Assembly (NCBI GenBank): GCA_001724265.1
Contig: MEDY01000202.1
Location: forward strand, 1 to 53,761
Origin: Rhizaria sp. SCN 62-66
Taxonomy: Eukaryota
Reading direction: 5' to 3'
DNA: 53,761 nt
In this document: one piece after another, positions 1-53,760 of the stretch
Numbering within the stretch: the stretch's first letter is position 1
Layout: every line of letters begins with the position of its first letter
The notes under the pieces: generated by a model
Seen by the model: only the letters and a program-made list of their open reading frames with translations
The model's database searches: none
Told to the model about the DNA's origin: nothing
Made by a program: the position numbers and the translations under genes

Positions 1-973
1 CGTCGTCGATGACGCGGCGTGCGCGACGGGCCTTCTCCGCGTCGGCCTTGACCTTAGCTTTGGCCCTGGCAAACATGTCGTCGTCGTCGTCCTCGCTGTC
101 ACTGTCGCTGTCAACGACGCCCATTGCAGCGCGGCTGTCGATGCGTTTGTTGACGCGCTTGCTGTCCTCCCTGTCGCCGCCCTTCTTCGCACTGGAGCCG
201 CTGGCGTTGCCGTTGTCCTCGGCGTCAAGCTCGCCGGTGCCCTGGAGGAAGATCTCCATGTCGGCCGCGTCGAGCCGCGTGACGAGGAAGCCCGTCTCGT
301 TGTCTACGGCCATGCGCGCCGCGGCCGCGGCCTCGGCCTCGGTGTCGCCGGCGGCCGCGGCCAGGATCGACGAGCGTTTCGAGTAGCTCCAGTCCGTCTC
401 CTCGGTCTCCGTTGTGGCCGTGCCGGCGGCGCCTTTCTTGGGCTTAGCGTACGCGGCCAGTGACCGGTTGTCCACCCGCGCGGCGGCGATATCCGGCGAG
501 GCCAGCAGCTGCTTCAGCACGTCGGGGTCCAGCGCCTCGACGTAGTAGCGCCGGTTCTTCAGCACGAGCTTCACCTTGCCGCAGCGCTCCGTGTAGCGCG
601 TAATAAAGCGCACAACCTAAGGGTCGACATCGGTTTTGGAAAGCTTGCGCAGGCCCTGGAGGATGTCCTCGGTGTCGAGCCCCAGCGAGGCGGCGGCATA
701 GAGCGAGTACTGCGTGATGACGTACTCGTGCACGTACTGCGGCCGCGTCACAGGGTCAGAGATCGCGATCATAAAGTCGCACGCCTGCTTGTACACCGGC
801 GACCATGACTCGAGGAACACGTGCCGGTTGGGACATACCCAGAGCGGGCGCCGCTCGTGGCTCGGGCGTAGCGGGAGACGGCCGAAGTTGGACTTGAACA
901 GCGCGTCCATCGCGGCCGTGCGCGCCGCGGCGTCTGTCACCACCGCGGAAGGGTCAAGCGCGTCTTCGGACAT
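1..973 (-). CDS. ERCC3: TFIIH helicase XPB (ERCC3/RAD25/SSL2), N-terminal part; runs off the window start; in-frame TAG at 617-619
   Basis: ATG at 973. Translation ...[107 protein letters not shown] matches the XPB N-terminal domain on both sides of the TAG. The frame stays open to position 1. Confidence 0.95.
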
Positions 974-1881
974 AGCGAGAGAGCGGACAGAAGACCGCGT
1001 GCGCGAGGCGAGGTTTGGCTGTGAGCTTGTGTGTGAATAAAAGTAAAAGTTGTGTGGTTGGAGTGTGGTCGAATGCTGGCGGAGTTTTGGTCTACAAAGA
1101 AAGAAAATACAGAAATTACTCGAAGACAAGGCAGTATATGATATCAGAGTACGTTTTAATGGTGACACAATGTATTACAGCGTTATTGTGGCATATTGTC
1201 ACGAGTTATGAACTACATTGGATAAGGTCGTGCTTGTGGTGTCCAGAGACCGAAGATGAGGCTTTGAAATTGAGCCACGCTCACAGCAAAGATATGCTTT
1301 CCAAGAATCGTTAAAACAAGATATAAAAGAAAAGTACAATTGATTTCAGGATCTTTGCGTGAAAGCCTAAACTAACTGATCACAATCACGCGGTGCAGCT
1401 TTGGGTTCTCTTGTTTTCTGGATCGGCATAGTCACGCAAGATGTACGTTTGTGGTGGCTGGTATTTTCCCCCCACTAAACAAGTTTGATCTTGACGTGAA
1501 TGAGGTCAACGCTAAGGTTGTTCAAATATGTAATATAATCGCAGTACTTATATATTTTATCACACATATTACTCTGATTACATTACTTGTATTACTGTCC
1601 ATATAGCAGTCATAGATGATTGCTGGATCAACGGTAGCCGTTGCGGCATTTCAACGTTAACATGCCATTGCGGTACAAGTACATATCGAATAACTCAATT
1701 TCTATTATAACTCTTTGTAAAAAGCAGTACATGTGAGGCCAACTTAATGGAGAGCGTCCAGGCACAGCTCTTCTGGCCACATGTGGTCCAGTCGATTGGT
1801 CCGTATAGTCGGACCCTTTCTTCAATCTGTACACACAGTGTACAGAGTGTGACTGTTGCTGTCGCAACATCATCATCTGCT

Positions 1882-4403: not shown

Positions 4404-5432
4404 ATGTCACACGCGGCCGGCCCCGACACCGAGGTGGAGTTCCGTCTCAAAAACATTCAGACTTGGGACTACCAGAAGTCTGAGTTCCGCATCGGCAGCG
4501 TCCACGGCCGCGTCGATTACGAGCAGAAAGAGGTTCGTCCATCTCCTTTGCATCCCCGCTTCACTTGCTTGTCCACACATTGATCTTACCCATTGCTCAC
4601 ATAACCTTGCGATATCTAAATGTTCTACCTTTTATCTCGTGCAACCCATAGCGCGCGTTCCACCCGAGCGACGTCCCGCCCGCCGCGCGCGCGGCGAAAG
4701 AGGCCGTCCGCAAGCGCGCCCTCGACTCGGCGTTGCACGCATCCGCGCCCGAGTGGCGCGCCGAGACCAAGGCCGGGCTCTCAGTCGGCTTCCGCGCCGG
4801 CGCACCCTGGGAGACGCCCGAGCAGACGGCGCTGCACCGCGCGGCGGCCGCGCGCGACGCCGCGGGCCGCGTGGCGGACCGCGAGGCCGCCGCCGCGGCC
4901 GCTGCCGCGGCCGCGCGCGCCACGCAAGCCCACGCGCGCGCTGTCCGCGCCACGGACACGCAGGGCGCGTCGCTGCGCCCCGCCGCGCAGCAGCGCGTGC
5001 TGGCGGACCCCGCGCAGCGCGCCGCCGTCGCCGCGGCCGCGCGCGGGGCCCGCAGCAGCGACTGGAACGGCAGCACGACAGTCGACCGGCGCGTGACGGC
5101 GCTGCAGAACGTGTTCCTGACCGAGGGCCCCGCCGCCGCGGCCGCGACCACCACGCAGGCGCGCCTCGATGCCGCACCCGCCGCCGCGGCTGCCGCGCGC
5201 ACGCAGGGCCACGCGTTCCTGGGCCCCTCGGCGCCGCGCGGCGTGCTTGACGGGACGCTCAACCCGCTGCCCTTCGTGCGCCCGCCGGTCAGTGGGCTCT
5301 GCGCCACTGCCGCCGCGATGCCCGGCGCGGGGGGCGTCGCGGCTGACGCGGGCGAGTTTGCGGCGGGCTCGACGCTGTCGCTGGTGGCGCGGCAGACGCT
5401 CGTGCTGGAGCAGCAGCGCGAGCAGCGCCGCG

Positions 5433-5464
<32 letters not shown>

Positions 5465-6568
5465 GCGGAGAAGTTCGCCCGGGCGGCCGCGGCGGACCCG
5501 CGCGCGTTGCTGCCGCGGCCCTACGGCGGGCGCAGCCGCGAGGAGGAGGCCGCGCGCAGGCAGGAGGGCGCGCGCGCGCTGTCCGAGACGTACACTCGCG
5601 AGGCCGCCGAGGCCGCGGTCCGCCGCCAGTTCGGGGACAGTTACCCCGAGACGACTGACGGCGGCGATCGCGCGAGCGCGGGTGCGAGCGTTGGCGGCGA
5701 CGGGGGCAACTGGTTCAAGCTGACGCTGCGCAGCCCGCAGCCCGCGCCGCGCGTGGCTTCCTCGTCCACCGCCGTGGCGCTCTCGCCCAGCGGCAGCGGC
5801 AACGCCCACAGCAACGGCGCTAGCAGCGGCAGCGGCGGTGCGGCCCCGTGGGGCGGCGCGCGCGGCTTCAACGCGGCCTCTGCGTCGACGCTGGGCTCCT
5901 CGGCCTTCGTCCCCACGACGGCCGACCGTTCCCCGCGCATCGCCCCCACAGTTCTGCCCGCCGCCTCGACCGCCTCCACTGCGGCCCAGGGCGGCGCGGC
6001 CGGTGCGGAGTCGGCGCTGGCGGCATACCTGGCCCCGCAGCTGGCTCCCGCGCGGCTGCACGCGCTGGGCGTGCCGCTGGGCCATACGGCAGCCGCCGCG
6101 GCCGCCGCGGACACCGCCGCCGCGCCCCTTGCGGCCCCCGGCCACCCCGCTGCCCACGGCCACGACCACGGCCACGGCGTAGTGGGGTTGTCGCGTGGCG
6201 CGCAGGAGCAGGTGCAGCGGCGACTGGTGCGGGGGCTGGACCAGGCCCTCCGCTCCGATGAGGCCGAGGGCCGCCGCGGCGGGCGCAGGGCCATCGAGCG
6301 CGCGCGCGCACAGGGCTTTGACACCGCGGCGAACGGCGGGCACGGGCGGCGCGGCCGGCGCGGCGGGCAGCGGCCGATGCAGCAGGGACAGGAGCCGCTG
6401 TACTGGCAGCTGGACACGCGCACGGTGGACGCGTTCCACGGCGACCGCGACGGCGACAGCGACGACGACGACGGATACGAGGGCGACGGCGGCGCGGGGC
6501 TGAGCGCGAACAGGCGGAGAGTGACGCAGGAGCAGGAGCAGGAGCAGGGACAGGACGGTTCTTAGTGA
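4404..6568 (+). CDS. Hypothetical Ala/Gly-rich protein; 2 exons; ends TAG-TGA
   Basis: Exon 1 4404-4532 (MSHAAGPDTEVEFRLKNIQTWDYQKSEF...), GTTCGT..TAG intron 4533-4651, exon 2 4652-6568 in frame with the 610-aa ORF. GC-rich codon usage. No family recognised. Confidence 0.75.
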
Positions 6569-7026
6569 GCTGTGACAAGCGAGCTGATCTGCGAGCTGAG
6601 ACAGTGCAGCGAGAGGTCAGTTTGTCGTGCGCTCGCTCTGAGTGACTGTGCTAACGTGCGCTTCGTGAGCACTGAGAGTGTCGCGAGGCATGTTTGGTGG
6701 AATTGCTTGCGTGGAAAGCCATGATAAATAGTAGTCGTTATGTGTGCGGGGCCCTACATTTGTTCATATTTGCAGACATTACTTAATACACAGGCTGCAA
6801 TTGGATCCAGCTTGACTCACAGCTAAGCAAGAAACAAATATGATGTTTATTTGTTTGCTTTAAGAGTGATTTTCAAAAGATAAAAAAATAAGAGTACACA
6901 AAACGAAATGAAATATGATATGCTAGTTTACTGGAAGAAAGACGTGTTGTAAAGATATTAGCGCTAGATCAAGAGCACAACTCAATTTGAAACTTCAGTC
7001 GTTGCGCCAATTGCTTGTTCTTGCAC

Positions 7027-8168
7027 TTAGTTGCTGCTGTTCGCAGCTGACTCCGTCTCCGCGGCAAACTGGTGCTTGCGGCCGCTAACACTGACCGCGT
7101 CGGCGGCGTCGGCGTCCCAGTACTGCTTGGGCGAGACGAAGGGCGCGAAAGCGAAGGTGACGCCGTGCTCGTAGCAGGGCCCGCGCGCGAGGACGCCGTT
7201 GGTGATGAGCCCCATCATGCCCTGCGTCGAGCGCACGTCGGCAATGCCCGCCAGGTCGTCCATCACCTCGCAGAGCTCGTCACCCGCGTGCAAGCGCGCC
7301 ATCACGTGCTGCGAACGAAGGAGAGAGAGAGAGAGAGCGAACGAGTGAGCAATTAAAGCAGTGCATCGGTGAGGTGAAGTTTTCGCATATTACACAAAGA
7401 CAAGCTCAGAATTTCCGATAAAAGATAAAACAAGCAAGTTCATGGCTAAAAACATGGTTGCGCTTCTATATTCATGCAGTATTCGTGTGCGGCAACGTAC
7501 CGGAGCCATCTCGAAGCGCGCCGAGGTGCCGACTGAGTCCTTGCCGTCAGAGGCGCGCACGACGTAGATGTAACCGGACTCGAAGTAGCGCTTCTGCGCC
7601 GGGTCCGCCGGGTTAACCAGCGTCTCAATGCCGCCCTCGATGCCGATGTGGAAGTCGCAGTCGGGCAGCGCGGCCGCCACGTTGCGCGCACGGTTCTGCG
7701 CGCCAGTCAACGTCTGCGAAAAGAACAAGGAAACGAAGGATAGCGCAACAAAAAACGTGTTATTAAAGATACAACTCATTTTAATTTAACAAATAACTGA
7801 AATCTATACGGTTATACAATTATATCACAATTATATTCGTTTTGCACGTGTACAGAGCTGTTGCAGCGAAGGGCGCGAATGAATGGGAGAGCGCGCGAAT
7901 GACGTACCTCCCAGGCCGAGAGCGGCTGGGCGTTGACCTCGCTGGCCACCTCAACGCCGATAATCTCGTGAACAGGTTCCACGCCCTCGGCGGGTTCGTG
8001 GATCACCTTGGTGACCGCGGCGGCGTCGCCCGAGGCCGGCACGAGCACGGTCACGCGGCACGAAGCCAGCGCGCCGGGCGCGGCGCCTGCGGCCGGGAAG
8101 AGCTTCTCCACAGCGCCGCGCACGGAAAAAAGCTTTGACGGGTTCTTGGTACCAACAGCAAAGCGCAT
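7027..8168 (-). CDS. Non-canonical purine NTP phosphatase (inosine/xanthosine triphosphatase, YjjX/NTPase_I-T family); 3 exons
   Basis: Exons 8168-7908, 7713-7501 and 7308-7027. Motifs: MRFAVGTKNPSK, GVEVASEVNAQPLSAWETLTGAQNRA, DFHIGIEGG, GDELCEVMD, QGMMGLITNGVLAR. Ends TAA. Confidence 0.88.
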
Positions 8169-8589
8169 GTTGCGGTGTTTTCTTCTGACGAGCTGCGTCG
8201 CTGTCGTATATCACTTTACTCAAAGTACGCTACCTCTTGTCTGACACCCTTCCTCGAACGCCGGAGGCGACGTCGCACGTCGATTACTTCGATTACGTTC
8301 GTGTCTTAAACGTCAAGTTGTATTTTTATTGGCCTCTAAGTTTTTATTTAAAATAATATATATAACCCCTTAATTATATCTCTACGCTGTCTAGTTGTAA
8401 CTCATAACACATGTTTTCCTTTCAACCTCTTCATTTGCTTGCTGATCTCTAACGAACTTCACTTTTGCCGCAGTTCAGAGTCGCAGCTAGAGGTTTTTTC
8501 CACTCCACTTCAGTGCGCGCTTTTCCGTCCCCGCCCTTCTTACAGCAGTAGTTGCCGCGCGTCCCATACCCGCCGCCCCTGAGTGCGCG

Positions 8590-10058
8590 ATGCTGTCGTT
8601 CCAGGAGGACGGCACGCTGTCGTGCTTCGAGCGCTGCGCCTACAACTCGCGCGTGGGCCGCCTCTACCTGCTGCTGGCCACGCTCGAGTGCGCCGCGCTT
8701 ATGGCCGTCGCCGTGCTGGGGCTCGTCAACCTCGCCAACGAGCCCGACGTCATGCTCTACACCTGCATCCTCTGCTTGTACATCTCGCTGCTGTTCGTGT
8801 ACTTTTCCTGGGACGCGATCCTGCGCGAGAACCTCTTCCAGTTCTGGTCTTCGTTCGTCATCCACCTCTTCATCCTCTTCTTCATCGTCTGGCACTACTT
8901 CTCGCAGACGCTCGGCCCGACCTTCGACCGCTGGTCCTACTACCTCATCGGGCTCGCGTCGGCCTGCCAGGTCCTCTACCTCGTGCTGCTCCCCTTTGTG
9001 GCCAACTCCTTCGGCTGGCGCGCGTACAAGCGCGTGGGCGCTAACATCCCGCTGCAGCGCCTGTACCGCACCGCGCACGTCTTCTTCTCTACGCTTAAGC
9101 TGGACCTGGCCGTCATGGGCCTGCTTGTGCTGCTGGCCTCCTTCTTCCTCTTCTCCTCGCTGCTGGAGCTCGAGTCCGTGCTTAACGCCACGGCGTTGCT
9201 GCTGGGGCTGGTCTGGGCTCGCGTCGGCACGCTCGCCGTGCGCCGCGAACAGCCGCGCCTCTTCAAGGCCTGGTTCGCCTGCGCCGTGCTCGCACCGGGC
9301 TACATCGTCTACAAGTTCGTCTGCCTCAACACGTCCGCCTACTACACCGAGTACCCGCGCACCACGTACCTCCAGTTCTACATCGTCGGCGGTATCGCCA
9401 TCGCGCTGCGCGCGCTCACCATGTTCTTCGCCTACCGCGCCTACGGCAACTTCCACCTGGGGCTGGCCGGCGTCTTCGCCGAGGCCCGCGGCGGCATCCG
9501 TGGGGACGGCATGCCCGTCGCGCACCGGCGCAACTCCGCCACGACCAACAGCGACGCGCTGGCGTCGGGCTCCCGCGGCGCGCGCGCGCGCTCCAGCCCC
9601 GGCTCCGGCGGCGGCGCCCTGAGCGGGCCCCTGCTGGCCGGCGGCGACGACAGCGGCGCCGTCACCGCCACCGGCCCCGCCACTGCCGCCGGCAACAGTG
9701 CCGCCGCGAGCAGCACCCTGGCGGCGCGCTGGGCGGCGGCGGGGCTGCCCGCCAAGGGCCACCCCGCGGCCGGCACGACCGCCGCTGCGAGCGCCGCCGC
9801 TAACATGCGTGCTCATTCGAGCTCGAGCGCGTCACTGGCGGCCACGGGCGGCGGTTTCAGCAGCCTCCAGGGCGGCTACGGCAGCGTCCAGGGCGGCGGG
9901 CCCGGCGGCGCCGTGGTTATCGCGCGCACGCCCTCGGCGGGGCAGCACGGGCCCTTCGCTTTCGGGCGCGCGCGCGGCGCCAGCGGCGGCGGCGACGGCG
10001 GCGGCGTCGGCAGCGGCGGCGCCGTGGGCGTGGACATCGACGAGCTCATCAGCGAGTA

Positions 10059-10094
<36 letters not shown>

Positions 10095-10379: not shown

Positions 10380-10434
<55 letters not shown>

Positions 10435-10671: not shown

Positions 10672-10703
<32 letters not shown>

Positions 10704-11265
10704 CCGGCAGAGCGTGCAGCTGGGGCTGGACGCGCGCGGCAACGCGGTTGCGATCCCGCTGGCGCCCACGCGGTTTTACACCGACAACCCGATGGTGACG
10801 GTGCCGACTGACGCGCAGGGCAACCCTGTGGGGCTGTCGCCGCCGCTGGCCGTCCTCGCTGGCGGGCCGGGCGCGGGCCCCGGGGCCGGCGCCCTGGGCC
10901 CGGGGGTCGCCGTCACCGTGACCGGCGCCGGCGCCGGCGGAGACCGTGACCGGGCGCGGGCACGGTCCCGAGGCCGCGGGAACAGCCTGGACGCCCACGA
11001 CTCCGGCCTTGGCGACGGCCTCGGCGTAGGCGAGGCACTGGGCGCGAGCGCGCGCATGCGGTCGCGCTCGGGGCAGCGCCTGCAGGTGGACGCGCAACAT
11101 GCACAGTCATACGCCGGCTTCAGCGCTGGCAGCGGCCGCGTCGGGCTCTTGGACCTGCCCGCGGCCGCCAACGGTAACGGCTCAGGGCTGCCCGAGACCC
11201 CCAGCCCGGCGGCGATGCGCGCGCGCTCGCGGTCGCGCAACCGGCCCGCGGACGACAACGTTTGA
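8590..11265 (+). CDS. Multi-pass membrane protein, UPF0658-like N-terminal domain plus ~590-aa low-complexity tail
   Basis: Intronless 891-aa ORF with ~8 hydrophobic segments in the first ~290 aa. WDAILRENLFQ and FGWRAYKRVGAN..LQRLY..FFSTLKLD resemble fungal UPF0658 Golgi membrane proteins (from memory). Ends TGA. Confidence 0.8.
10369..10452 (+). repeat. (CAGAGC)n hexamer microsatellite encoding (SQ)n
   Basis: Directly visible tandem CAGAGC units inside the 8590-11265 CDS. Confidence 0.9.
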
Positions 11266-12176
11266 GCGCCGCTCGCTCGCGCGCAAGGGAAGTCGGGGAC
11301 GCTGGCGACTGCAAGCAGCGGTGGATAGCGGCTGTTTAAGTGACTTGCTGAGGGCCGCTAGACGTGCATTTCATCATCATATGGACGTGGCAGAGAGATG
11401 TCGCACGCAGTTTGATCTATTTTTAAGTGGTCTATTAAGTAATACAAAAATGCCTATTTTTTCCCGATTGCTTAAGACCATCAAGCCAGCGCTTCCAATA
11501 TGAAATTTCGGGACAGTCGACACTTTTTCGGTCCTACTTCTGGGCGTGCATTGTCGCAGCACGTTGCAGGCTGGCTGGGGACAAAAGTTGGAAGCTTTTG
11601 CTGGGCGTCTTTGACGTGAGTTTTTCTCAGTTTGGTAGGATACGAGTAAATATAGACGCCAGAACATGGGTAGTATTTGATTGCACAAACACCTTCACGC
11701 TCTGTTGCGGGGAAACAGCTTCTGCTTCAACACCACCACGAACCCCGTTTTGCTGCTGGGAGTCCCCAAAGTTTCAGAAAAATTCCCCCGTTTTCTCAGC
11801 CACGCGCCCATCTATTCTTGTTTGTTATGCAATGTGCAGGTGTTGTGCACACTCTGATTCCTTAGGTTATCTTCTTTCTGCTTAGCACACTGTTCCAACT
11901 CAATGCAAAGGACCGTTTCTCGGCTGTAGCTTGACGACTCTTCGCCTCACAGCTCCCACTGTGCAGGTTTCCTGCAGGATAGCCGCGGACTTTTCTCACA
12001 CATTTCTTGCATTTTCCTCTCATTTGGTTCCATTGTAGCCCCCCACCCCCTCCCGCTTCCCGCTTTTCGCCCCGCGTTCAGCCGCAGAGAAGCCTTTCCT
12101 CCGTAGCCCTTAGCTCCGGTCACCGTTTTTTTCCCCACCCCTTTTCTCTCACCCCACACCCACAACACATCACACC

Positions 12177-13310
12177 ATGGGCGGTTGCGAGTCGTGTGCG
12201 ACGGCGCACGATGCCGAGATGCGTTCCAACTACGCCGAGCAGCTCGACATGCAGATCGAGCGCGAGCGCGAGGAGGAGAAAAACCATTACAAGATTCTCC
12301 TGCTCGGTGCCGGTGAGAGCGGTAAGTCGACCATCATCAAGCAGCTCTCGCTGCTCTACCGCAAAGGCGGCATCATGGAGGACCGGCGACAGTTTATCCG
12401 CGTGCTGCAGAATAACACGATTGTGTCGATGCAGGCGCTGCTGCGCGCGGGCGAGAGCATGGGCATGCTCAAGCCCTCGGACGACGGCACCAGCTACGAG
12501 GCTGACATCGCGCTAATCAACAACGCAGAAGGCAACGACGCGATGACCGAGGCCATGGTGGCCGCCATCGAGCGCCTGTGGGAGTCAGCCATGATCCAGG
12601 AGGTGTACATGAACCGCTCGCAGTTCTGGATCCTGGAAACGGCCGACTACTACTTCAAGAACTGCGCCCGGTTTATCGAGCACAACTTCCTGCCTGACGA
12701 CGTTGACGTGATCATGGCCCGTAAGCGCACCACGGGCGTAATCGTGACCGAGTTTCCCACCGAGGACGGACTCAAGTTCTCCGTCGTCGACGTCGGTGGG
12801 CAGCGCTCGGAGCGCCGCAAGTGGATCAACTGCTTTGACGGCGTCAAAGCCATCTTCTGGGTGTCGAACCTCTCCGGCTACGACAAGGTGCTGTTCGAAG
12901 ACAAGAGCATCAACCGCATGCAGGAAGACCTGGACCTGTTCAAGGAGACGCTCAAGGCTGCCGCGTTCCGCGACACGCCCATCTTCCTGTTTTTCAACAA
13001 GCAGGACCTCTTCTTTGACGCGCTTAAGTACTCGACCATCGACACATGTTTCCCCGCCTATAAGGGCTCCTCGGACCCCACCGAGTGCCAGGAGTTCATC
13101 GCGCAACAGTTCAAGGAGGCGCTCCCGCCTTCGAAGACGATCGAGAAAATCCTCTACCTCTCGGCCAAGGACAAGAACAACGTTAAGGCCGCCTTTGAGG
13201 CCGTCAAGGACCACTTGCTGGCCGCCGAGAAGGCCAAGCCTGCCGCGCCCGCCGCCGCCGCGGGCGGGGCCGGCGGCGCCGACCGCCCTGCCGCGCGCGG
13301 CAAGAAGTAA
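12177..13310 (+). CDS. Heterotrimeric G-protein alpha subunit
   Basis: Intronless 377 aa. MGGC N-terminus (myristoylation/palmitoylation), KILLLGAGESGKSTIIKQ, RKRTTG, DVGGQRSERRKW, FFNKQD. Ends TAA. Confidence 0.97.
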   Translation: MGGCESCATAHDAEMRSNYAEQLDMQIEREREEEKNHYKILLLGAGESGKSTIIKQLSLLYRKGGIMEDRRQFIRVLQNNTIVSMQALLRAGESMGMLKPSDDGTSYEADIALINNAEGNDAMTEAMVAAIERLWESAMIQEVYMNRSQFWILETADYYFKNCARFIEHNFLPDDVDVIMARKRTTGVIVTEFPTEDGLKFSVVDVGGQRSERRKWINCFDGVKAIFWVSNLSGYDKVLFEDKSINRMQEDLDLFKETLKAAAFRDTPIFLFFNKQDLFFDALKYSTIDTCFPAYKGSSDPTECQEFIAQQFKEALPPSKTIEKILYLSAKDKNNVKAAFEAVKDHLLAAEKAKPAAPAAAAGGAGGADRPAARGKK

Positions 13311-14881: not shown

Positions 14882-17800
14882 TTAACTGAGCAGCTGCATC
14901 GGCGTGACGGTGTGGTCGTCGGCCGCAAGCGAGGCCGCGAAGAAGCCCTGCGCGGCCGAGTTCTGGCCGCGGTACGCCTCCTCCTCGGCGGCGACGCGCA
15001 TGCGCAGCCGCAGCGGGCGCGCCGACGGGAAGTCCGGCCCCATGAAGCAGATGTCGCACGAGGGGCAGCAGCGGCGGGGACACATAGCGTAGTTGCCCAG
15101 CGCGATGGGCCCGACGATGAGGAGCGAGAGCATAGCCATGAAGAGCGGGATCACGGCGACGACGAGCGAGGGCGCCCACAGCGTCGTGTCGGGGTGCAGC
15201 GCCTTGTTAGTCCACAGCGCAAGGAAGATGATCTGGTACGGAATCAGCAGCATGGTGAAGCACGCGAGCGTGGAGGAGCCGCAGTCATCAGAGCACTTGC
15301 AGCAGGCGACGCAGTAGCCGATGACGACGACGAGCGCGGTGAGGAAGAAGGGCGCGAAGAGGCCCATGGTGGGGATGTCGAATCCGCTGAGCTGGAGGTG
15401 CAGCAGGATGCAGAAGAGGTAGACCTGGATCATGAAGAACATCGATCCACCCGCGGGGCCGCGCATCGGCTCCTCTGCGCGCGGCGCGTCGTAGTCGGTC
15501 ACGGTGTGCAGCCGGTGCTCCAGGTTCGCGTTGTCCTCGTAGATGGCGTAGGTGCACATGGCGAACACGTGCAGCAGCGCGATTACGTAGATGGGGATGA
15601 AGAACCACCACAGACTGAGGCCGACGCCACAGGACTTGATGAAGATGAACGTCGCGAGGAAAATGAGGCTGAGCGGGATGCCGACGAGCACCACGCGCGA
15701 CTGAGACGGCTGGCGCGCGATGAGGTTCCACGTGCGGTCGAAGAGCGTGTCGCCGTCGATGGAACACAGGCGAGACGGGTCGCGGAACGGCGCCAGCGAC
15801 GGGTCTCGCGCCTGCGCGCCAGGCTCGGACGGGCACCAGCTTCGCCGCATGCACGACGCGACGAAGGAGATCACCACCCAGAGCACGATGACGGCAAGCG
15901 GGAAGGTAAAGGCGGGCGTCACGCGGAGCCCCTCGTGGCCGGCGATGATGATAAGCACGAGGAACGTGAGAACCATGAAGACGATCGACACGAGCGCGCC
16001 GAACGACACGCAGCACACGTACCACACGTTGGCCGTCGTGCTCTTGGCGTCGAAGCGCTCGACCCACGCCGCGCCCGTGGCCTGCGCGAGGGCGAGCCCG
16101 CCCGCGCGGGCCGTGCGCGCGGCCTCGAAGTGCTTGTGCAGCGTCATAACAGACTCGCCCGCCACCCAGCGCTCGAAGTCGTCCGCCACCACCGTGCTCG
16201 TCGCAGTGGCCGCGATGGCGGGCGCGGGAGCATGCGCAGAGGCCGTCGCAACTGCCGCGGTGTCGCCGGCGTTGGCGGCGCCGGCATTGGTGGCGCAGAG
16301 GTCGCTGGCGGGGCGCGTCTGGCGGCCCAGGAAGCGGTGGTAGCCGCTCAGCGCGTCGCGCGAGAACCGCGCATAGGCCTCCTCAGCGATGCTCGTCTCC
16401 ATCGCCGGCTCGGCGACGGTCGACGGCATGTACTGCGGGCGCAAGAACGCGCGGTTGGCCGTGCTGTTGGGCGCCAGCGTGGCGTCCGGGTCGGCGACCT
16501 CCTCGGCGGGGTCGAACAGATGCACCTGGCGCACCGCGGTGCTGCTGCTGCCGCCGTCCTCGTCCTCACCGGCGCCCTCGCCGGCGCCAAACGCGAGCGC
16601 GGGGGCGCCGGGGACGGGAGGTCCGCCGGGCGGCGGCGGAATGCTCGACGTGTGGATGCCCGACGTGGGCGGCCCGCCGGGCGGCGGGGGAATGCTCGAG
16701 GTCGGGCGGTGCGCCTCGGGGCCGTTGCCCAGCACGTGCCCGTGGCCGAGGCCGCTGGGTGCGCCGGGCGGGGGCGGGATGGAGCTGGTGGGCAGACTGC
16801 CGCCGCCGCCGGGGTTGCTGTGCGCGAGCAGCCGCGGCACCTCGGTGCTGTGCAGCACGATCTCCGGCAGCACGTCGTCCACCTCAAAGTCGCCGCACGC
16901 GCCCGCACCGGCGCTCGCGCTCGCGTTCGCGGGGGCGCCGGTGCCGCTGACGCTCACGGTGACGCTGCTGACGCTGTTGCCGTAGATGCCGCTGGAGCTG
17001 CCGTCCTCAGCGTCGGCGTCCTCGCTGATCACGTTCAGCTTGAACCCACTGCTGTTCACCACCGTCTTGCTCCTGTGCGCAGCGCCGACACTGACGGCGG
17101 CACTGGCACTGGCACCAGCACTGGCGCCGACACCGGTCTCGGAGCGGAGCGAGACTGCGGCGACAACGCCGCGCACGGGGTAGTCGGCTCCGGGCACAGG
17201 CACCGCCGCGGCGGGTAGCTTGCGCAGCTCGGCGAGCGTCGCCGCGCCCATCTTGCCGCTGCCACCCGCGGCGTGCACGGCGGCGCTGTAGGCCGCGGCG
17301 GCCGCGGAGAGGCGCTCCTGCGCCTCGCGCTCGTTGGCGTCGAGCCGCGGCCGCGCGCTGTCGCCGCCCAGCAGCGCTACCACGGCGGGTACCGACACGC
17401 CCAGGCCGCCCGGCGTGCTCTCGTCGCCGTCGCCGCCCAGACGGTGGCCCTTGCCACTATTACTGCCGGCGCCGGTGACGGCAATGCTGGGGCTGATGAG
17501 CGAGAGCGGTGTGGCCATGGCGCGCGTCACGCTGGGTCCTACGAAGAGCTCGAGCCGGCGCGCGCCCACCGTCGCCGCGCCCGCGCCCGCGGCGCCCGCG
17601 CCGAGCCCGGAGGCCGCGTGGGGCGGGGCGAGCGCGGTGGTGTCGGTCGTCAGGGCGATTTCGTCGAAGCGGCCCAGAGAGGGCCTGGTATGGAAAGGCA
17701 AAAAAATATCAAATCGAAGTGATGCGAATTAGCAAAAAATACAATACGCAATTGATGAATTACAGACGAACTCGATGAAAAAAGTATTAGCATTGACATT

Positions 17801-20689
17801 TGAGAGCAGATTCCGGTTAAAATAAGTATCCATTCGCCGCACGTACCAGTTCTGGTAGCGCTGCGCCGCGCCGAGCGGGTCCTCCGGGGGCAACGTGGCG
17901 TAGAGCGGCGGCGCGTCAAGCACGCCGTTGCCGCGCGCGGTCCACGTCGAGTTGGCGAACGGCGTCTCGCCTCCGAGCGGCGAGCTCGCCGGCAGCGGGC
18001 CGCGGCGGAAGGACTGCGCGGCGTTGACGCTGTGACCGACGCGGTCGCTCGCGGTTGCCTCGTACTGCAGCTGCCACAGCGCCGTGCGCACCGACTGGGC
18101 GAGCGCCGCCGTGGTGCTCTCGTTTTCGGCCTCGCTGCTCTCGCCGTCATCGCCGTCGCTTCCGGCGCCATTGCTGTTTCCCGCGGAGTTGTCGCGGTTG
18201 CGGGCGGCAATGATGCGGGACATGTCAATGCCCAAGCGCGCGCCCGCGGTGATCAGACGCTGGTCGCGCTCGCGCCGAGCCTGCTCGGCAGCGCTGTTGC
18301 CGTTGATGTTGCTGTTGTTATTGTTGCGCCGATTGAGGCTGCGGCCACGGCGACTCCGGCTGCGGTTGCTGCTGCTGCCGTTGTTGCCGCTGTTGCTCCT
18401 CGCGGCGTTGGCCTCGCCGCTGTCGACGAGCGTGCTCGCCACGGGGGGCTCCGGCGCGGGTCGTGTGGGAACGGCGCGCACGGCCGCGTGAAGCTCCACT
18501 GTCGCCGCCACCACCGGGTCCGACCCGTTGACGATCACGGCACCAGAGCCCGCGCCGCCGCCGCCGCCGGCACCCGCGCCCGCCCTCGCGCCCGCGGTGG
18601 CGCCGTCAGGTACGGCGACCTTGATGAGCTTCTTCTTGAGCCCCGCGGCGGGGCTGCCGCCGGAGACCGTGGCCGCGGTCGCAGCGGCCTCGGCCTTGAC
18701 GCGCTAATCTCTCGCGTCGAGCGCGGCGTTGCGCACCTGGACCTGCTCCACCAGCGCCGTGAGCTCGCGCTCGCGCGCGGGCCCGCGGCGCTGGTTCTGG
18801 AACGCCACCATGCCCTCCTCGACCGTGAGGCCGTAGCAGTAGCCCACGGGCGGATGGACGGCTTCGCGGCGCGCGCGCTCAGCGGGGGAGATAACGCCGT
18901 CCAGCTCGGGCAGCGGGTCCGGCCCCGAAAGCAGCGAGTAGCGGTCCGTGTGGCGGCGCAGGTCGCTGCGCAGGTCGCGCGAGTAGGGCCCGCCAGGCGT
19001 CACGCGAGTCCACAGCCACACCAGCTCATCCGCCGTGAACAGCGACGTCGGCACTGCGGGCGCCTGCGGCCGCACATCGCCCGCGCTGCTAGCGCTCGTG
19101 CTGCTGTTGTTGTTGGGATCGTAGAAGTCGACGGGGCCGGCCGCGGTCAGAATGGCGATCTCCTGCTCAGTCATGCGCGCGAAGCGGACGAGCGATAGCA
19201 GCGGGCCCAGCTCGAGCCGCACGAGGCGCGGGTCCTGGTCGTCGAGCCCGTGCGCGCGCAGGCGAAAGCGCGCCCAGCGCACGAGACTCTGCAGCAGCTC
19301 GAACTCGTCGCAGCGGAGCCGGTCCGAGGCAACGAGCGCCTGCAGCGCGCGCGCGGGCAGCGCGAGGAACAGCGGCGAGCGCACGGCCTCGGGGAACACG
19401 GCGGCGGCGTACGCGAAGTCGCCGGACTCGGGGTCGTAGGCAAGCGTGCTGTCCTCCTCGAAGTAGCGCGCGGTGCCGCGCTCGCCGATCGCGGAGTCTG
19501 TGTCGTACAACGACAGGAACTCGGGCTCCTGGTTCGCGCCCGCGGCGTTGTTGCTGTTGCGCACGGCCCCGGCGCCACCGCCCTTGCCCTGCAGCCGCGC
19601 GCGCTCGTCCAGGTGGCCCAGCACGAAGGGCAGGAAGGCCGTGTCGGGGTGCCGCGCTGTGGCGGCGAGACTGTCGCCGATGCCGAAGGTCTCGTAGCAC
19701 TCGGGTGCGTTGCGCGAGACGCCCAGCGCGTGGAACACCGTCTGCACCACCGACGCGACGGGGCGCTCGCTGCGGCGCGCCAGGGTCAGCGCCGTGTGGT
19801 TGCCCGCGCCGCAGCCGCACGTGTGGCGGCACGACAGCATCCAGGCGGAGCAGCCGGCGCCGCGCGTGCGCGGGCCGTGCAGGTCGCTGCGGTAGCGCTC
19901 CACGGCCGCCGCGGACGGGAATGCCGGCGGCGCGCGCGGAGACAGAGACGGGGACACGGTCGCCGCGGTGGGCGCGCGCGGCGCCGGGGCGAGCTCGACG
20001 AGCAGCGCGGAGGGCGCCGGCACTGTGGGCAGCGGACGACCCGCGGCGTCGGTGAGCTTCTTGTAGCTCGACACGGTGGGCGCGGACGCGGGGGCCGGCG
20101 CGTGGCGCGGCGGCGCGCGGCCCGTCGCAGCGTGGTAGCGGCGCGCGACGGTGGAGTAGACGGGGAAACCGGTGCCGGGCGCGAGCCCGGAGCTGGCGCT
20201 GGTGCAGGAGCTGCCTGGTCGCGTGAGGCAGTTGTCGTAGAGGAAGTGGAGGAACGCGTTGTCCTCTTCGTCATGCAGCAGCTGGACAACGCCCGCGGCG
20301 GGGGCGGAGGCTGAGGCCGCGGAGTGCGCGGGCAGGTACGTCTCGGTGCCGGGGACGGATGGCCCGAAGGCCATTGCGAGCGAGAAGGGCGCGAGGTTGG
20401 TCGGCCAGTCGCGGGCAATCAGCGTGGGGTCGTCGCGGTTCAGCGGGAACGGCGCGGCCGAAGCGCCACCGGGCGGAGACTTCGGCGAGGACAAAGACGC
20501 AACGTACTTGTATGCCGAGGACGATGCGTCATGACTGGAGGCGCTGGGAAGGCTCGAGGAGGCGTGGCCGGCAGCGGAACTGTCTCCTGGGGCCAAGGGG
20601 GCGAGATGCGACTCATTGATCTCGGGGGCGACGTCACCTGACTCGGCCAGGCGGAGGTAGTCTGCCCAATCAGAGATATACTCCTCCAT
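14882..20689 (-). CDS. ~1881-aa protein with a BACK-like domain and a C-terminal multi-TM region (TMEM185/Fragile-X-F-like); 2 exons; in-frame TAG at 18704-18706
   Basis: Exon 1 20689-17847 reads through TAG (DARD*RVKAE). GTACGT..CAG intron 17846-17685. Exon 2 17684-14882. BACK-like segment SPLFLALPARALQALVASDRLRCDEFELLQSLVRWA..LLSLVRFARM. TM segments include SLWWFFIPIYVI and LFAPFFLT. Ends TAA. Confidence 0.75.
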
Positions 20690-21266
20690 GTGCTCGGGCG
20701 CGCAGTGGCGGCGGACGGAGGAGCGCGGGAGGCTGAAAAAAACCGTGAAAAAGAAGGCGTGCGACAGCGCGTGAGGGGGTTCGAATCTTGTTGCGAAGAG
20801 AGAGCAATATTCACCCTAAAGATCAGACTGTGACAAAATACAGCAATTAAAAAGCAATAAAACAGACAACATAATTAGCTGTTCAATGCGCTGTTGTGAG
20901 AACTAATGACGGTGCGAGGCTCTGCACTGATTCCTATTCCGCTCCTAGTTCCGGCTCGGACACGCCCGCCAGTCTGGAGCTGGACAAATTTACTTTCTGT
21001 GGCCGCGACCACAACTGGGTTTGCGCGGACTATTTTTAGGCACCATCAAGTCATATGTGCACCATTGCAGAATTTGCGGCTTCTATAAGATATAAAAAGC
21101 TCCTATGTATCTATTTGACGTGACAGTGCGTCTTGAGGCCCTTACTATAGCGTCTATAACTCAATCAATTCTTCCTCAATACTGTCAAGTAAGCAAGCTC
21201 GCACGTATTTCGCCCACAGTCGTCCTCCTGCGTCCCCACGAGCTCAACTCACAGCCGCCGTCGCGC

Positions 21267-22632
21267 TCACCCGTCGCGCTCCTCGTCCCATTCGCCCCGC
21301 AGCGGCGCCACCGGCTCTGGCCACCGTCCGTTGGCGGCGGCCTCGAGCAGCGCCACCACCTCTGTGTGTCCGCGCTCAGTCGCCACCGACACCATGCTCC
21401 GCCGCGGCCGCCGCGGCTTAGCTCCTGCATCACCCTCACCCTCACCGCCGCCGTCGCCGTCGCCACCGTCGTCGGCGCTGTCGTCGTCGGGCATAGTGAA
21501 GGTGACGTCGGCCCTGGCGCCGAGCAGCATAGCCGCGATGGCGTCGTTGCCGTCGCACACGGCCTCCCACAGGGGCGTCGGCGTCAGCGCCGCACAGTCC
21601 CCGTGGCACTCGCCGCACGCACTCTCGTTCTGCTGCCCACGGTCGCTGTCGCCATGGATGTCACTGGCGCTGCTGAGCGGCGAGGCCCCCGGCGCGGCGG
21701 GCGCGAGCACCAACCCGGTCCCCGCCGCGGCGGCAGCACGCTTCGCGGAGACCGCGGCCGCCACGGCCTGTGCCTTGCCGGGCCCCGCGGCGGCGGCGGC
21801 GGCGGCGGCCAGCGCGGCGGCCGCGGTGGTCTGGATGTTGCGCGCGAGACGCATGTCGGCGGCGCGGACGCCAGTGCGGTTGCGGCAGCGGCAGCCGTGG
21901 AGGTCCACGTCGAGCCCCGCAAGGGCCCGAGCGTGTTGCGATGTGCCATCACCACTGCTGCTGCTAGACGATTCAGGATCCGTGTTGGAGCTACCTGCGG
22001 CGGGTTTGCTGACGGCGGCACCGCCAGCGCAGGCCCGCAGCAGGGCGCGCACGGTGGACTCGAAGCCCATGGTGGCGGCGACAAAGAGCGGAGAGTAGCC
22101 CTGCATGTCCTCGCTACATTGTCACAAACGCAAGTCAAGTCACGGAAAGTGATACAAGACAGGATCAAATGAGTGGGTGATTATCATAATAAATTCATCA
22201 ATGTAGGATAAAATGAACAAAAACAACAAAACTAAGACTACTGTAATGAAAGTACGTACATTGACTGCGGCAGCGCGCCCCTGGCCATGAGCACGTCCGC
22301 GCGCGCGCCGGCCCGGACGAGCGCGGCCACGACTGCGGGCGCGGCGGCAATCGCGGCCGCGTGCAGCGGCGTGCGCAGGTCGCCCGGGTCGCGCGCGTCG
22401 GGGTCCGCGCGCGCGGCGAGCAGCGCGGCGACGGTGGGCAGCCGTCCGTTGGCCGCGGCGAGCACGAGCGGCGGGATGCCGGCCGTGCGGCGCGCGGTGT
22501 GGGGCAGCGCGTGCGGCGCGGAGGGCAACGCGCGCGCGGAGAGCAGCAGCAGCGCAGAGGCGTCGTCGTCGGCCAGAAGCGCAGCGCCCAGGGCAGTGCG
22601 CTCGGCGGTAGCAACAGCCACAGCAGCAGCAT

Positions 22633-22696
<64 letters not shown>

Positions 22697-26413: not shown

Positions 26414-27061
26414 ATGGCCTCGTGGCTTAAGTGGTCCCGGAGCATCAAGTCGCTCATCTTCCACCTCCCGATCGTCTCCATTTCGACCGCGTTCGGCGCT
26501 GTGGGCCTGGGCTGCGCCGCCGCCGCCCTCGTGTCCGGCGACATCGGCATCGAGCGCAACATCGACAAGAAGGACAACATGGACTACTACAAGGATATGT
26601 CCCGCGAGCTTACCTACGAGTTCAACCGCCTCCTGGACGCGGACCCTGCGAAGCTGATGCCCGAGTACCAGCGCGTCTACTCGCGCCTGGGCGCTGTCAA
26701 GCAGTACCGCACCGAGCTGGACGCCATGCCGCTCGACAGCCCCGCGCTGGCGGCCACGCGCAAGAAGTACATCGACTCGGCCTTCGAGGTCTACTACGCC
26801 ACGGCCATCGACGCGAACCCGCGCACCGCGGAGCAGATCGCCGCCGGCCGCAAGCGCCTCATCGACCGCGGCTTCATGACCCCCATGCCCGTCGTCGCGT
26901 TGCCTGTGCCCGAGCTCTACCCCGCGCCCAAGGCCATCAACGGCGCCACTGCGACTAAGGACGAGGCGACCACCTACCTGGCGCAGAAGTGGCTCCACCG
27001 CGAGAACAACTGGACCGGCAAGGAGCAGTGGGTCAAGGACACCGAGACCAAGCTCGCCTAA
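26414..27061 (+). CDS. Hypothetical 215-aa protein with one N-terminal hydrophobic segment; strongly codon-biased
   Basis: Intronless ORF with almost exclusively C/G third positions. Hydrophobic segment HLPIVSISTAFGAVGLGCAAAALV. Ends TAA. Confidence 0.85.
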   Translation: MASWLKWSRSIKSLIFHLPIVSISTAFGAVGLGCAAAALVSGDIGIERNIDKKDNMDYYKDMSRELTYEFNRLLDADPAKLMPEYQRVYSRLGAVKQYRTELDAMPLDSPALAATRKKYIDSAFEVYYATAIDANPRTAEQIAAGRKRLIDRGFMTPMPVVALPVPELYPAPKAINGATATKDEATTYLAQKWLHRENNWTGKEQWVKDTETKLA

Positions 27062-34600: not shown

Positions 34601-37600
34601 ATGCACCTCCGCTGCAGCAGCTGTATCGGCGCGAGGTAGTGTCATTGACGGTAACGCCGTTAGCCACGCTGCTCACGACGATGACCAGGGCGTTAATGCT
34701 GATGCATTAATTAATGCCCGCAACCAAATGGTTGTATATCTAAGCGGACATTTCATGACGACTATTGGTGCTGTGGCGGCAGCGCTTCAAGTTCCATGCG
34801 CCCAAGCGAGCGCTGCCACAGAGGCTGACGCTGATGCTAGCGACGATGGCGATCACGGTAATGCAAGCGCAAGTGCAAGTGTGAGTGCTGATATCGGTAA
34901 TTATCAAGAAAACAGTTTTGACACAGAGTCGAAGCAACATTCAGATGCGACTGCTGCCTCTCCTGCTGTTGACAGCAGCAACTCCAGCGCAGCGTGCCCC
35001 GGCATAGCCCCGGACAACGTCGCCGTAAACGCCTTGAGCAACAGCCTGAGCAGCGACGACTCCGACATGCGTCTGGCGTCGAACCAGTCGACGCTGGTGG
35101 CGCCGCCGACGCCGGGGCCCGCCGCGGGGACGCGCGCCCACCGCGCCGCGCCGCTGACGTCACAACCGCAGGTGCATTCGAGCACGCTGTCGCAGCAGTC
35201 GCAGTCAAATTCATTGTCGCAGCTGCAGGGCAAGTCTGGCCTCGGCCACGGCCACGGCCAGGCACACACGCGGCCGCCGTCGACGCCCGCCACGCGACTG
35301 CCGCGCGGCGCGGGGGCGCGGGCGGCTGGCGGCTCGCCCCTGCAGGGGCTTGGCTTCGGCAGCCTCGGTCTCGGTCTCGGGCTCGGCTCCGGAATGCAGC
35401 ACTCTGCGCACAGTCACCTGCTCGGGCCGGGGTCCGCGTCCGCTGCGGCAGCGACAACGAAGGCAGCGGTCTTGACTGTGCGCGTGATGCTCCGGGCCGT
35501 GGTGCGCAACAGGGCGACGGAGATCCAACACCAGCACCAACAACAGAAGCAACAACAACGTGTGTCTGGACCCAGCGACAGCGCCAGGGCAGACTCACCG
35601 TCTCAATCTCAATCTTCCGAAGTCGACGCACTGTCGGAGCCGCAGCCGCAGTGGTTGCCACCATTGCTGGAGCCGCCCTCAGAGCAGTCGCCCTTGAAGT
35701 CGCCGCAGGAACTATAGCCCCATCTGCAGCAGTCGTCCTCATCGTCATCCTCAGCTTCTGTGTTCCAGTCGCCCCTGCCGCCTCCGCCGCGCTCGCACTT
35801 GCGCTCGCACGCACAGTCGCGGACCGCATCGCAGTCGGCGCACCTACACCCGCAGTCGCGCTCAAAGCCACACTCACCACAGTCGCAACCTCCGTCGGAG
35901 GCGACTGAGACGCTGCAGGCATTGTGCACGTTCCTCGACAGCCTGTTGCCGCCCGCTGCACACGGTCACTTGCACGGGCTCTCTGCAGGCTCGTTGCTGG
36001 CGTCGCCCCGCGCCAGTGTCCGCGGGTACACTCACACCAGCCTTCACGGCCATAATCACAGTCAGCAGTCGCAGAGTAACTCACAGCTCCTCTCCGGCAC
36101 TGCCAAGAAAGACACACCCGCACTCGTTTCGATGACTCCCCCCACTGGCGAAGAGGCCGCAGGAGCGCCAGAGACAGCGGCGGTGGCCGACTTGGCGGCC
36201 GCTGCGGGTGAGGCTTTCGCCGCCTCGCTCGCCCGCGCGCGCACTGTGCTGCTCGCCGTGGCGCGCGCCGCGCGGCTGCCGCAGGAGGAGCTCGCCGCGA
36301 TGGAGAGCGAGAGCAAGAGCCAGGACGCGACTCTCGTCGCTGCCGCTGCTGCCGCTGCCGCAGCTGCTGCCACAACGGAGGCGCTGAGAGACGGTGAGGC
36401 CGGTTTGGCGCACGTGAAGCAGCTGCGGATGGACGACTGTTCCGACTCAGACAATTTCGAAGACAATAGCAATGCCAAGCGCAAGACTTTGCAGACAAGA
36501 AGCACCAATGGCAACGATGGTGACGACAATGACGATGCCAGCGATGGTGAGACCTTTGCCCTGGACGACCGCGGCTTCTACAAACTTAAACGTGCACGCA
36601 CACGCCTTTCAATATCCACTGCATCGTCGACAGCCTTCGTGTTGGCTTCCCCCGGTGCCACCGCACTGCAACAGAACATATTGCAACCGCTGCGGCGACG
36701 TCCGGCGTCGCTGCGTGCGTCGTTCGCTGCACTCGCTGACCCGTCCTTACTCTGCACCGCAACTTCACAGACACAGTGGCCTTGGCAGTCACAGTCGGCT
36801 CTCTGGTTGCCGTCGCCTCTACGCTCTGTTTCGGCGGTTTCCACCGCGTTCGGCGCTTTTCACAGCACGCCCGCGAGCGACTCGAACGTCGCCTTTAGCT
36901 CTGCTGGTGGCGTCTTTCCTTCTGCGATGTGGGCGTCGGTGCCCCCCGCGGCCGCTTTATGCGCGTTCCTAGCTTTCACCGCGCCGTCCAGCTACGCACC
37001 GCTTGCGCACACGCTGCGCGTCGTCGCCGCCACAGCCGCCGCCGCTGTTGCGACATCTATTTCGGCCGCGGGCACCAATGCGGGTGCTGCAGCGGTGGCG
37101 GCTGCGGCGGCCACCGAGGCAGGTTTCCTCGAGCTATCGATCGACAGTAATCACAACTTGAGCCACAACAGCAATTCCAACAACGGACCAGGGCCCAGCA
37201 ACAATGCTTCGTCGACGGTAATGACGCAGGCGCGGGCGCTGGCGCGCGAGCCTATGGCCGTGTGCAGTCTGGCTCGGGCTGCTGCTGATGCGGGACTCGC
37301 CGCCGCGTTGCCTGCGTCGCTACACACCCACGTGGCGAAGCTTCTGTGGGGCGGTAACTTTAACAATGGCAGTCACAGTAGAGAATGCGGGTTTGACTGT
37401 GGCGGCGCCAGCGTTGGTGCTATTTTATGCCAGCTATACGCCCTTGCAAACCTTGGTGTCGATGGTGACAACACCAATATCTCACCCGCGAGCACACTGT
37501 CTACTGATCGTGCCGTTGCCTTTCTCTCCCGCGGACTTGCGCCTCATTCACCAGCAACCACTCGCACTCACAGCAAGCGGCAGCAGCGGCTGCAGCAAGA

Positions 37601-40600: not shown

Positions 40601-41840
40601 GAGTGCGACTAATGCGGGTCTTGGTGGCGCCGGGGCAGGTTTTGTGTGGCGGTCCGCTCTGGTCACACCGGACACTGTTGCTTCTGCCGCCACCGCAGTC
40701 GCTGGTGCAGGTTCTGCAAACTCACTCACATCAGTACTCTCGGTGCCAATGAGCGCGTTTCCGAGTGATACAGCTGCCGCGGTAGCTGTGGCGACTACAT
40801 TGCCTTTAGACCCACCTCAGCCAGCTCCCCTATCGCAGCAGCAGCAGCAGCAGAAACAACAATATTCGCGTTCTCGCAGCAGCGGCCCGTCATCCGCTTC
40901 TCGACCCCAATCAGCTCCGTTGTACTGGCCCTGCGCGCTCCCGCGGCGCTCCGCCGCAGTTGCCGCCGCTGCGGCGTAGCTGGTCATGGGTGCGCTCGAG
41001 CGGTTTGGCGCCGCCGCAGCGCTGATGTTTGCGTTTCCGTCGCCGCCGCTGGGGCCGCACGCACAATGCGTCTTTGCGACCGGCGCCACGGCGGAGGCAA
41101 ACACCTCGCCGAACATTGTTGGCGGAGACGACACCGCAGTTGCTGAACGAACGTCGACACGGACAGCAGCTGATGCGAACGCGTGTCGCACCCCCATTGC
41201 TGTTGTCTCAACTGGCGCGATCTCGCTCTTCCCGCATCTGTGGCTCCCCCCGCTGTCGCTGCTCCGGCCCCGCGGCGCGCCCCCCGTTGCCCGAGACCTG
41301 TAGCCGCGGCTGCGGGTGCGCAACCTGCCTGCTGAGCTCAGGAAGCTCGCCACGGCGGCGGCGCGCACGAAGGCTAAGACTGCCACAGCGTCAAAAACGA
41401 CGGGCAATGTGACATCCACTGCGTCTGGTTCTAACACGACAGCAGCAGTTGTTTTGGTTTATGCTGACGGTTCCATTCACGATGCGAGCTGTGGAGGCGT
41501 TCACAACACCATCGAGCCAGATTCTGAGTCTGAAACGGTGGCAGTGGCTTTAGGGACTGTCGCAGCAGTCTACGGGCGCCTGACAGCGCTGGCAGTAACT
41601 TCGAAGGTTCAAGTTGCGCAGGCGTGCCAGCTAGCATCGAATCATTGCAATACTGCGCATATACAACCATTTGAGTCCCTTTCTGCAGTTGAACTTGAGG
41701 GCGCAGTTGCTGTTGCAGCGCGCGCGTCGCCGCTGTACTGGGCAGCGCTTGGTGACTCTGGGGCTACAGCAATCTCAAGAGCCGAGGCAGCGCGTGCAGC
41801 CAAGGCAATTCAAACTCTTATTGAACTGCCATCTCTTTGA
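31638..41840 (+). CDS. ~3400-aa hypothetical protein (disordered N-terminus, coiled coil, Ala/Leu-rich helical C-terminal half) with five in-frame TAG codons
   Basis: ORF-track pieces ending at 31694, 32795, 35717, 40979, 41303 and 41840 are all in one frame. The first five end in TAG, the gaps between them contain no other stop, and the last ends in TGA. No AT-rich intron-like interruption is visible. Confidence 0.8.

Positions 41841-53683: not shown

Positions 53684-53760
<77 letters not shown>

Follow-up and report, generated by a model that had tools for sequence, protein, structure and literature searches.

UAG is probably read as sense, and UAA and UGA as stops, on a nuclear contig of an uncultured eukaryote from wastewater communities

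Results

In-frame TAG codons in four nuclear genes

Contig MEDY01000202.1 (assembly GCA_001724265.1) was analyzed over its full length of 53,761 nts, which is the window referred to throughout. The DNA is nuclear, from an uncultured eukaryote with GC-rich DNA and introns that occurs in wastewater and bioreactor communities, and on this one contig the codon UAG is very likely read as an amino acid, with UAA and UGA remaining terminators. The case for UAG as a sense codon is built on long open frames that continue past the TAG triplets, the continuity of a protein domain across one of them, gene ends formed only by TGA and TAA, and the persistence of the triplets across assemblies. An initial annotation, made from the letters alone, had proposed this division of the three stop codons, and everything testable in the window supports it.

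Coding segments were modelled by hand from Pfam matches, open frames and intron signals, giving 18 segments in 14 genes with a total of 12,289 codons. TAG occurs eight times in the coding frame of these models, and TAA and TGA do not occur at all, as the initial annotation had also stated for its own gene models. TGA is missing in frame although it is the commonest stop triplet over all six frames of the window (TGA 1,361, TAA 623, TAG 554). The zero count of TAA holds as well but carries little weight as an argument, because A-ending codons are rare in these genes (CAA 69 vs. CAG 384; GAA 58 vs. GAG 442); on these ratios about 1.4 TAA codons would be expected beside eight TAGs even if TAA were a sense codon, and their absence is thus uninformative. 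All eight TAGs listed in the initial annotation were found again, in four separate genes on both strands (those at 617 and 18704 read CTA on the plus strand, their genes being on the minus strand). Six are clearly internal (617, 18704, 32793, 35715, 40977 and 41301) and two are ambiguous (6563 and 31692). The plus-strand TAG at 6563 is the final codon before a TGA (6563..6568), the only TAG near a gene end; it may close the coding sequence as a sense codon, or it may itself terminate, with the TGA as a backup. At 31692, the TAG comes 18 codons past the first candidate ATG (31638) of its gene and could belong to the 5' leader.

Two of the internal sites are flanked by strong coding signal on both sides. 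The minus-strand TAG at 617..619 lies inside the N-terminal domain (Helicase_C_3) of the XPB protein, where the Pfam model PF13625 matches residues 111-235 continuously across it (E-value 9.5e-30), and the alignment with human XPB passes it without a gap (E-value 1e-44), with Gly opposite the TAG. At this site, codon usage scores 0.85 on the upstream side and 0.96 on the downstream side. The second TAG (18704..18706, minus strand) separates open frames of 703 and 324 codons in a BACK-domain/transmembrane gene, with codon-usage scores of 0.63 and 0.52 and GC contents at third codon positions (GC3) of 0.95 and 0.92 on its two sides; local GC content is 0.76, and no donor or acceptor signals were found around it. 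Apart from these two TAGs, no stop codon in any of the six frames has a codon-usage score above 0.5 on both flanks.

The remaining internal TAGs belong to a giant plus-strand gene encoding an Ala/Ser/Gln-rich protein of about 3,400 codons. Its frame, open from 31443 for 3,465 codons with the first ATG at 31638, contains five TAGs (31692, 32793, 35715, 40977 and 41301) and neither TAA nor TGA until the TGA at 41838. The two sister frames on the same strand hold 12 TAG, 7 TAA and 33 TGA (52 stops) and 24 TAG, 26 TAA and 72 TGA (122 stops), respectively. No Pfam family matched this protein, and no relatives of its C-terminus, which carries two of the TAGs, were found among 1.84 billion representative proteins. 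The search returned three matches, namely two fragments of the protein itself and one low-complexity sequence, and one of the fragments stops exactly before the TAG at 40977. The database entries of the giant protein are fragments cut at TAGs.

Across the window, the frame stays open for 205 to 1,753 codons beyond most TAGs, and for 108 codons beyond 40977. The GC content within 60 nts of the TAG sites is 0.59-0.78, compared with 0.36 and 0.34 in two recognized introns. None of the eight is located in intron-like DNA, and the six clearly internal ones all lie in GC-rich exonic DNA. A codon-usage scan with a loose threshold could not tell sense from mirror frames at this high GC content, and the gene models were used instead; a comparison of open reading frame (ORF) lengths under codes with TGA or TAA as sense was confounded by the same mirror frames.

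Terminators of complete genes

Twelve genes are complete in the window, eight ending in TGA, four in TAA and none in TAG. The initial annotation had counted 13 complete genes, eight with TGA and five with TAA. Its TGA count stands, but its fifth TAA (17729-17731) is probably not a gene end, as it lies inside a probable intron joining two ORFs. A clear drop in GC3 at the stop is seen at nine of the 12 ends, whereas it is less distinct at the TGA ends of the WD40, DUF2465 and giant genes, where another exon might follow. At all four TAA ends, GC3 falls from 0.90-0.95 before the codon to 0.28-0.62 after it.

TAG sites in other assemblies and RNA data

The stretch is present, whole or in part, in seven of the nine public runs listed, which come from five studies. 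All seven are metagenomes, taken from bioreactors, wastewater, activated sludge and microbial fuel cells, with dates from 2015 to 2025. DNA contigs of three studies carry three of the TAG sites identically. The TAG at 6563 is covered without any difference by contigs of runs X1 (5534-9972; this run may be the window's own source sample), X3 (6509-8357) and X4 (6335-7115), and that at 18704 by contigs of X1 (10711-19361) and X3 (16905-18858), also with zero differences. The X4 contig over the TAG at 617 (563-1285) has 38 differences from the window, of which 35 are listed; none of these 35 falls at 617-619.

The genes are transcribed, since eight listed RNA stretches of the polyA metatranscriptome X5 match them with zero differences. 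RNA depth in X5 is zero in two intergenic bins.

In the 5' part of XPB and upstream of it (806-1176), contigs of X3 and X4 carry about 35 substitutions and small indels, which suggests a second strain or haplotype in these other samples.

Weighing of alternative readings

Several observations weigh against a sense reading of UAG. The TAG at 6563 might itself terminate translation, and with only 12 complete genes the absence of TAG ends is counted on a small sample in which this site would be an exception. UAG would be a very rare sense codon, with a frequency of 0.065% (8 in 12,289 codons). That all in-frame stops are TAG is by itself weakly significant (P = 0.03 for 8/8 and 0.07 for 6/6, on a 65% share of TAG among random one-step nonsense changes). 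The site at 617 is the only TAG in a conserved and alignable column, and none of the eight listed X5 stretches spans a TAG. No tRNA with anticodon CUA was detected by ARAGORN in the window or in three related metagenome loci (L001-L003), Rfam gave zero hits, and eRF1 is not among the window genes. L002, a 21-kb locus (1-21065) with a GC content of 0.5, is the nearest relative with long DNA; all nine of its long ORFs end in TAA, and no internal TAG past the first Met was found in them, save one located three codons before the TAA of its G-protein alpha subunit (G-alpha) gene. This stop pattern is compatible with a shared as well as an unshared code.

The alternative that survives best is that UAG has a dual meaning: eRF1 would still recognize it, but a suppressor or near-cognate tRNA would read it through efficiently where the termination context is weak, and it may terminate where the context is strong. 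The change would then be one of decoding by context, as opposed to a clean reassignment. The sequence context of the TAGs fits such a situation. The base after a sense TAG is C in five of seven cases (background 0.26; P = 0.016), and the codon preceding a TAG ends in A or T in five of eight (background 0.19; P = 0.008). C after the stop codon is the weakest (leakiest) termination context in eukaryotes. It follows none of the 12 real terminators, which are followed by G in eight cases, T in three and A in one, and the single TAG that no sense codon follows, at 6563, precedes the T of the immediate TGA. The excess of C suggests that the release factor still competes at UAG and that some stop function may be kept, and this excess, together with the low frequency of the codon, makes context-dependent dual meaning a live rival. 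On the other hand, the context samples are tiny, no gene clearly ends in TAG, and XPB, an essential single-copy gene, has its TAG early in the coding region, so that decoding must be efficient. On balance, we consider dual meaning unlikely.

A code in which UAA and UAG (UAR) are both read as Gln and TGA is the sole stop, with TAA too rare to appear in frame, would agree with the uninformative zero count of TAA and is described as the commonest variant in PMC5304391 and PMC11687900. However, the G-alpha, BACK-domain/transmembrane, 215-codon and PP2A scaffold subunit (PP2A-A) genes lose their coding signal exactly at TAA, and the next in-frame TGAs (27, 30, 62 and 147 codons on) are reached only across AT-richer sequence. 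Because the signal is lost at all four TAAs, TAA is a working stop, which argues against the common UAR code so strongly that we regard this alternative as highly improbable. The standard code, with the TAGs as decay mutations, polymorphisms, assembly or base-call errors, or triplets spliced or edited away, seems just as improbable: TAG makes up 65% of random one-step nonsense changes with this codon usage, no listed RNA contig crosses a site and the giant gene has no homologues, but four separate genes are affected, frames continue past a TAG for up to 1,753 codons without a frameshift, TGA or TAA, the same TAGs recur in assemblies of studies from 2015 to 2025, their sites are GC-rich, exon-like and devoid of splice signals, and the similarity to the XPB domain is complete on both sides of the TAG.

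Residue encoded by UAG

If UAG is a sense codon, as we favor, its meaning has to be read mainly from the XPB column at 617. The 12 homologues aligned there have E,E,E,K,Q,D,G,G,R,N,E,R, that is, Glu in the three nearest homologues, Gln in one of the 12 and Leu in none. The nearest one (P0127; 74% identity over the aligned region) has Glu. With each residue tried in turn on a fixed tree, the likelihood shares are 0.73 for Glu, 0.08 for Asp, 0.05 for Gln, 0.04 for Lys and 0.003 for Leu, values that describe one site in one variable column. The paralogous BACK-domain genes, BACK1 and BACK2, could be aligned only over the BACK domain; the region around 18704 is without alignment and no residue could be read there, nor did the search with the C-terminus of the giant protein yield a column. 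The context of the TAG at 32793 (SQ-SQ-AP-S[TAG]-TQ-AQ-AQ-QQ) points in another direction, as Gln would complete an S/T/A-Gln dipeptide repeat, and the change from CAG to TAG is a single transition. The proposal of the initial annotation that UAG encodes Gln is therefore not established: one Gln-rich repeat favors it, but the XPB column does not. We rate Glu and Gln about level. Leu is unlikely, and it is kept as a candidate because one variable column is insufficient to dismiss it.

UAG would be decoded by a tRNA that carries the anticodon CUA and descends from one for Glu or Gln, and eRF1 would recognize the codon poorly.

Lineage of the organism

The four best named matches of PP2A-A are the chlorarachniophytes Partenskyella, Norrisiella, Bigelowiella and Lotharella. 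In a tree of 39 PP2A-A rows, whose named members include no rhizarian other than chlorarachniophytes, the window sequence clusters with ten environmental sequences and these four at a Shimodaira-Hasegawa-like approximate likelihood ratio test (SH-aLRT) support of 100, to the exclusion of fungi, oomycetes, plants and amoebozoans. The best named match of XPB is also a chlorarachniophyte (Amorphochlora), and those of G-alpha are stramenopiles at about 42% identity. A search of the ESM Atlas with PP2A-A gave no lineage signal. On this single-gene evidence, the organism probably belongs to the Rhizaria, within the group of stramenopiles, alveolates and Rhizaria (SAR). The idea of the initial annotation that an independent case could have arisen in a flagellate thus needs qualifying, since PP2A-A and XPB point to Rhizaria, the group that contains exLh, a UAG-only case with UAG as Leu.

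Relatives from metagenomes were found for G-alpha at 86% (L001) and 67% (L002) identity, and for XPB at 74%. The neighbors of G-alpha in L002 are not syntenic with the window, and no alignable TAG column was found in L001 or L002. An aphelid identity was also considered and rejected: Amoeboaphelidium has a UAR-to-Gln code in the papers, and the window genes do not group with fungi or aphelids.

Comparison with known codes

The closest known system is exLh, an insect-dwelling sainouroid rhizarian with UAG as Leu, for which PMC5304391 reports 384 UAGs in 71 genes, with UAA as the stop in 56 and UGA in 15. UAG alone is sense and UAA and UGA are stops there and, very likely, here, and the supergroup is probably common to the two (Rhizaria). 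The differences are that UAG is abundant at conserved Leu columns in exLh, whereas it occurs eight times in 12,289 codons here; that it means Leu there, compared with a share of 0.003 for Leu and 0.73 for Glu at the one informative column of the window; and that exLh lives in an insect host, whereas the window organism comes from wastewater and bioreactor metagenomes.

In the fornicate Iotanema spirale, UAG encodes Gln and makes up about 8% of Gln codons, with UAA as the main stop, according to PMC5304391, which presents exLh and Iotanema as the first UAG-only codes. The Iotanema code is likewise a UAG-only change with UAG as a minor codon, but in an unrelated lineage (Metamonada) and with Gln fixed by many conserved columns. 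Phyllopharyngean ciliates have independently reassigned UAG to Leu or Gln and left UAA unreassigned (PMC11687900); they resemble the window in the UAG-only change, but they are ciliates, whereas the window genes group with chlorarachniophytes and not with alveolates. The UAR-to-Gln code (NCBI table 6) is described for ciliates, hexamitins, ulvophytes and Amoeboaphelidium protococcarum in PMC5304391 and PMC11687900. It shares UAG as a sense codon with the window, but UAA is sense there and is the terminator at four gene ends here.

Two further reports describe Blastocrithidia nonstop, with UAR as Glu and UGA as Trp (PMC12153298), and one ciliate that gives UAA and UAG different amino acids (PMC10553269). 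Compared with codes in which UAG is Glu, the meaning of UAG would match if Glu is correct here, but UAA is also sense there, whereas UAA and UGA both look like plain stops here. In the ciliate with split meanings, UAG reportedly stands for Glu. Codes in which all three stops are sense (Blastocrithidia, Condylostoma and Amoebophrya type) have in-frame UGA, whereas none was found in the 12,289 codons examined here. In the literature consulted, we found no report of a UAG-only code in another rhizarian, a stramenopile or a wastewater protist.

Gene content and introns of the window

The genes of the window, recognized by Pfam matches and open frames, are a typical eukaryotic nuclear set on both strands. 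GC content is 50-73% per 2-kb bin and GC3 of the coding DNA is about 0.87. The introns, short and rich in AT, start with GTACGT. Positions of the features are collected in Table 1.

Table 1. Genes and selected features of the window
Feature	Position	Strand	Remarks
XPB/ERCC3, N-terminal part	2..976	-	Pfam and homologues; truncated at window start
WD40 protein			ends in TGA
Ala-rich protein	last exon 4652-6568	+	TAG-TGA pair at end
DUF7789 membrane protein
G-protein alpha subunit (G-alpha)	12150-13310	+	TAA end at 13308..13310; GC3 0.93 before, 0.62 after; next in-frame TGA 147 codons on
BACK-domain/transmembrane protein	14882..20692	-	TAA end at 14882-14884; GC3 drop; next in-frame TGA 27 codons on
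Ankyrin protein, intron	22113..22258	-	GTACGT donor; GC 0.34; ankyrin repeat continues past
DUF4200 protein (cilium-type coiled-coil)
215-codon protein	26414-27061	+	TAA end at 27059..27061; GC3 0.95 before, 0.47 after; next in-frame TGA 30 codons on
DUF2465 protein			ends in TGA
Giant low-complexity protein, ~3,400 codons	31638..41840	+	TGA end at 41838
Importin-beta-like protein
PP2A scaffold subunit (PP2A-A)	47320-48489 + 48642-49427	+	TAA end at 49425..49427; GC3 0.90 before, 0.28 after; second TAA 3 codons on; next TGA 62 codons on
Second BACK-domain protein	reaches window end	+	

Two ORFs that had earlier been listed separately, a BACK-domain exon reaching to 17847 and a 948-codon transmembrane exon (17684-14885), probably form one gene, judging from the sequence at their joint. 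The 162 nts between them (17685-17846, minus strand) have a GC content of 0.36, a GTACGT donor, and a pyrimidine tract with a CAG acceptor, and their removal keeps the frame; this intron-like stretch with its in-phase joint is the reason why the two ORFs are read as one gene. A single RNA contig covers this place (17684-18033); it is unspliced and stops at the base predicted to open the downstream exon. The ankyrin intron contains two TAGs that seem to be in frame if the intron is overlooked.

Upstream of the Ala-rich exon, a plus-strand TAG at 4649 follows a pyrimidine-rich stretch (4600-4652) and resembles an intron acceptor. The first Met of the Ala-rich frame lies about 290 codons downstream, and a 5' exon is probably missing from the model. 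At the other end of the window, the second BACK-domain gene contains a long poly-Asn tract (53600-53761, plus strand), which may be the reason why the contig stops at 53761.

Two candidate features were rejected. The segment 18695-18843, a gap between listed RNA pieces that could be taken for an intron, is rich in GC, lacks GT/AG ends and has a length that does not fit the reading frame; the missing RNA cover there carries no weight as evidence. A 99-nt tRNA-Arg(GCG) called by ARAGORN (35063-35161, minus strand) is located inside the giant ORF without Rfam support and is probably a false call.

Discussion

Reassignment of UAG with UAA and UGA kept as stops is a known kind of code change, and the window fits it in what looks like a new lineage. 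Nuclear changes that split UAG from UAA are rare, and PMC5304391 and PMC11687900 describe them in one rhizarian and one fornicate as well as in a few phyllopharyngean ciliates. Tentatively, and with considerably less confidence than we have in UAG as a sense codon, the window may record a second independent UAG-only change within Rhizaria, in which UAG would encode Glu beside UAA and UGA as stops. Such a change would be at an early or incomplete stage, with rare UAGs tolerated mainly before C, where termination is weakened, and UAG perhaps still acting as a stop in strong contexts, such as the TAG-TGA pair at 6563. If a code with UAG as Glu and with UAA and UGA as stops is true, the code table itself would be new.

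Low usage of UAG and its context bias would give a natural intermediate of the kind considered in codon-capture and ambiguous-intermediate models. For genome annotation, the consequence is that gene callers set to the standard code truncate the proteins of this organism at TAG. Since the giant protein is stored as TAG-ended fragments, eukaryotic bins from wastewater are mis-annotated.

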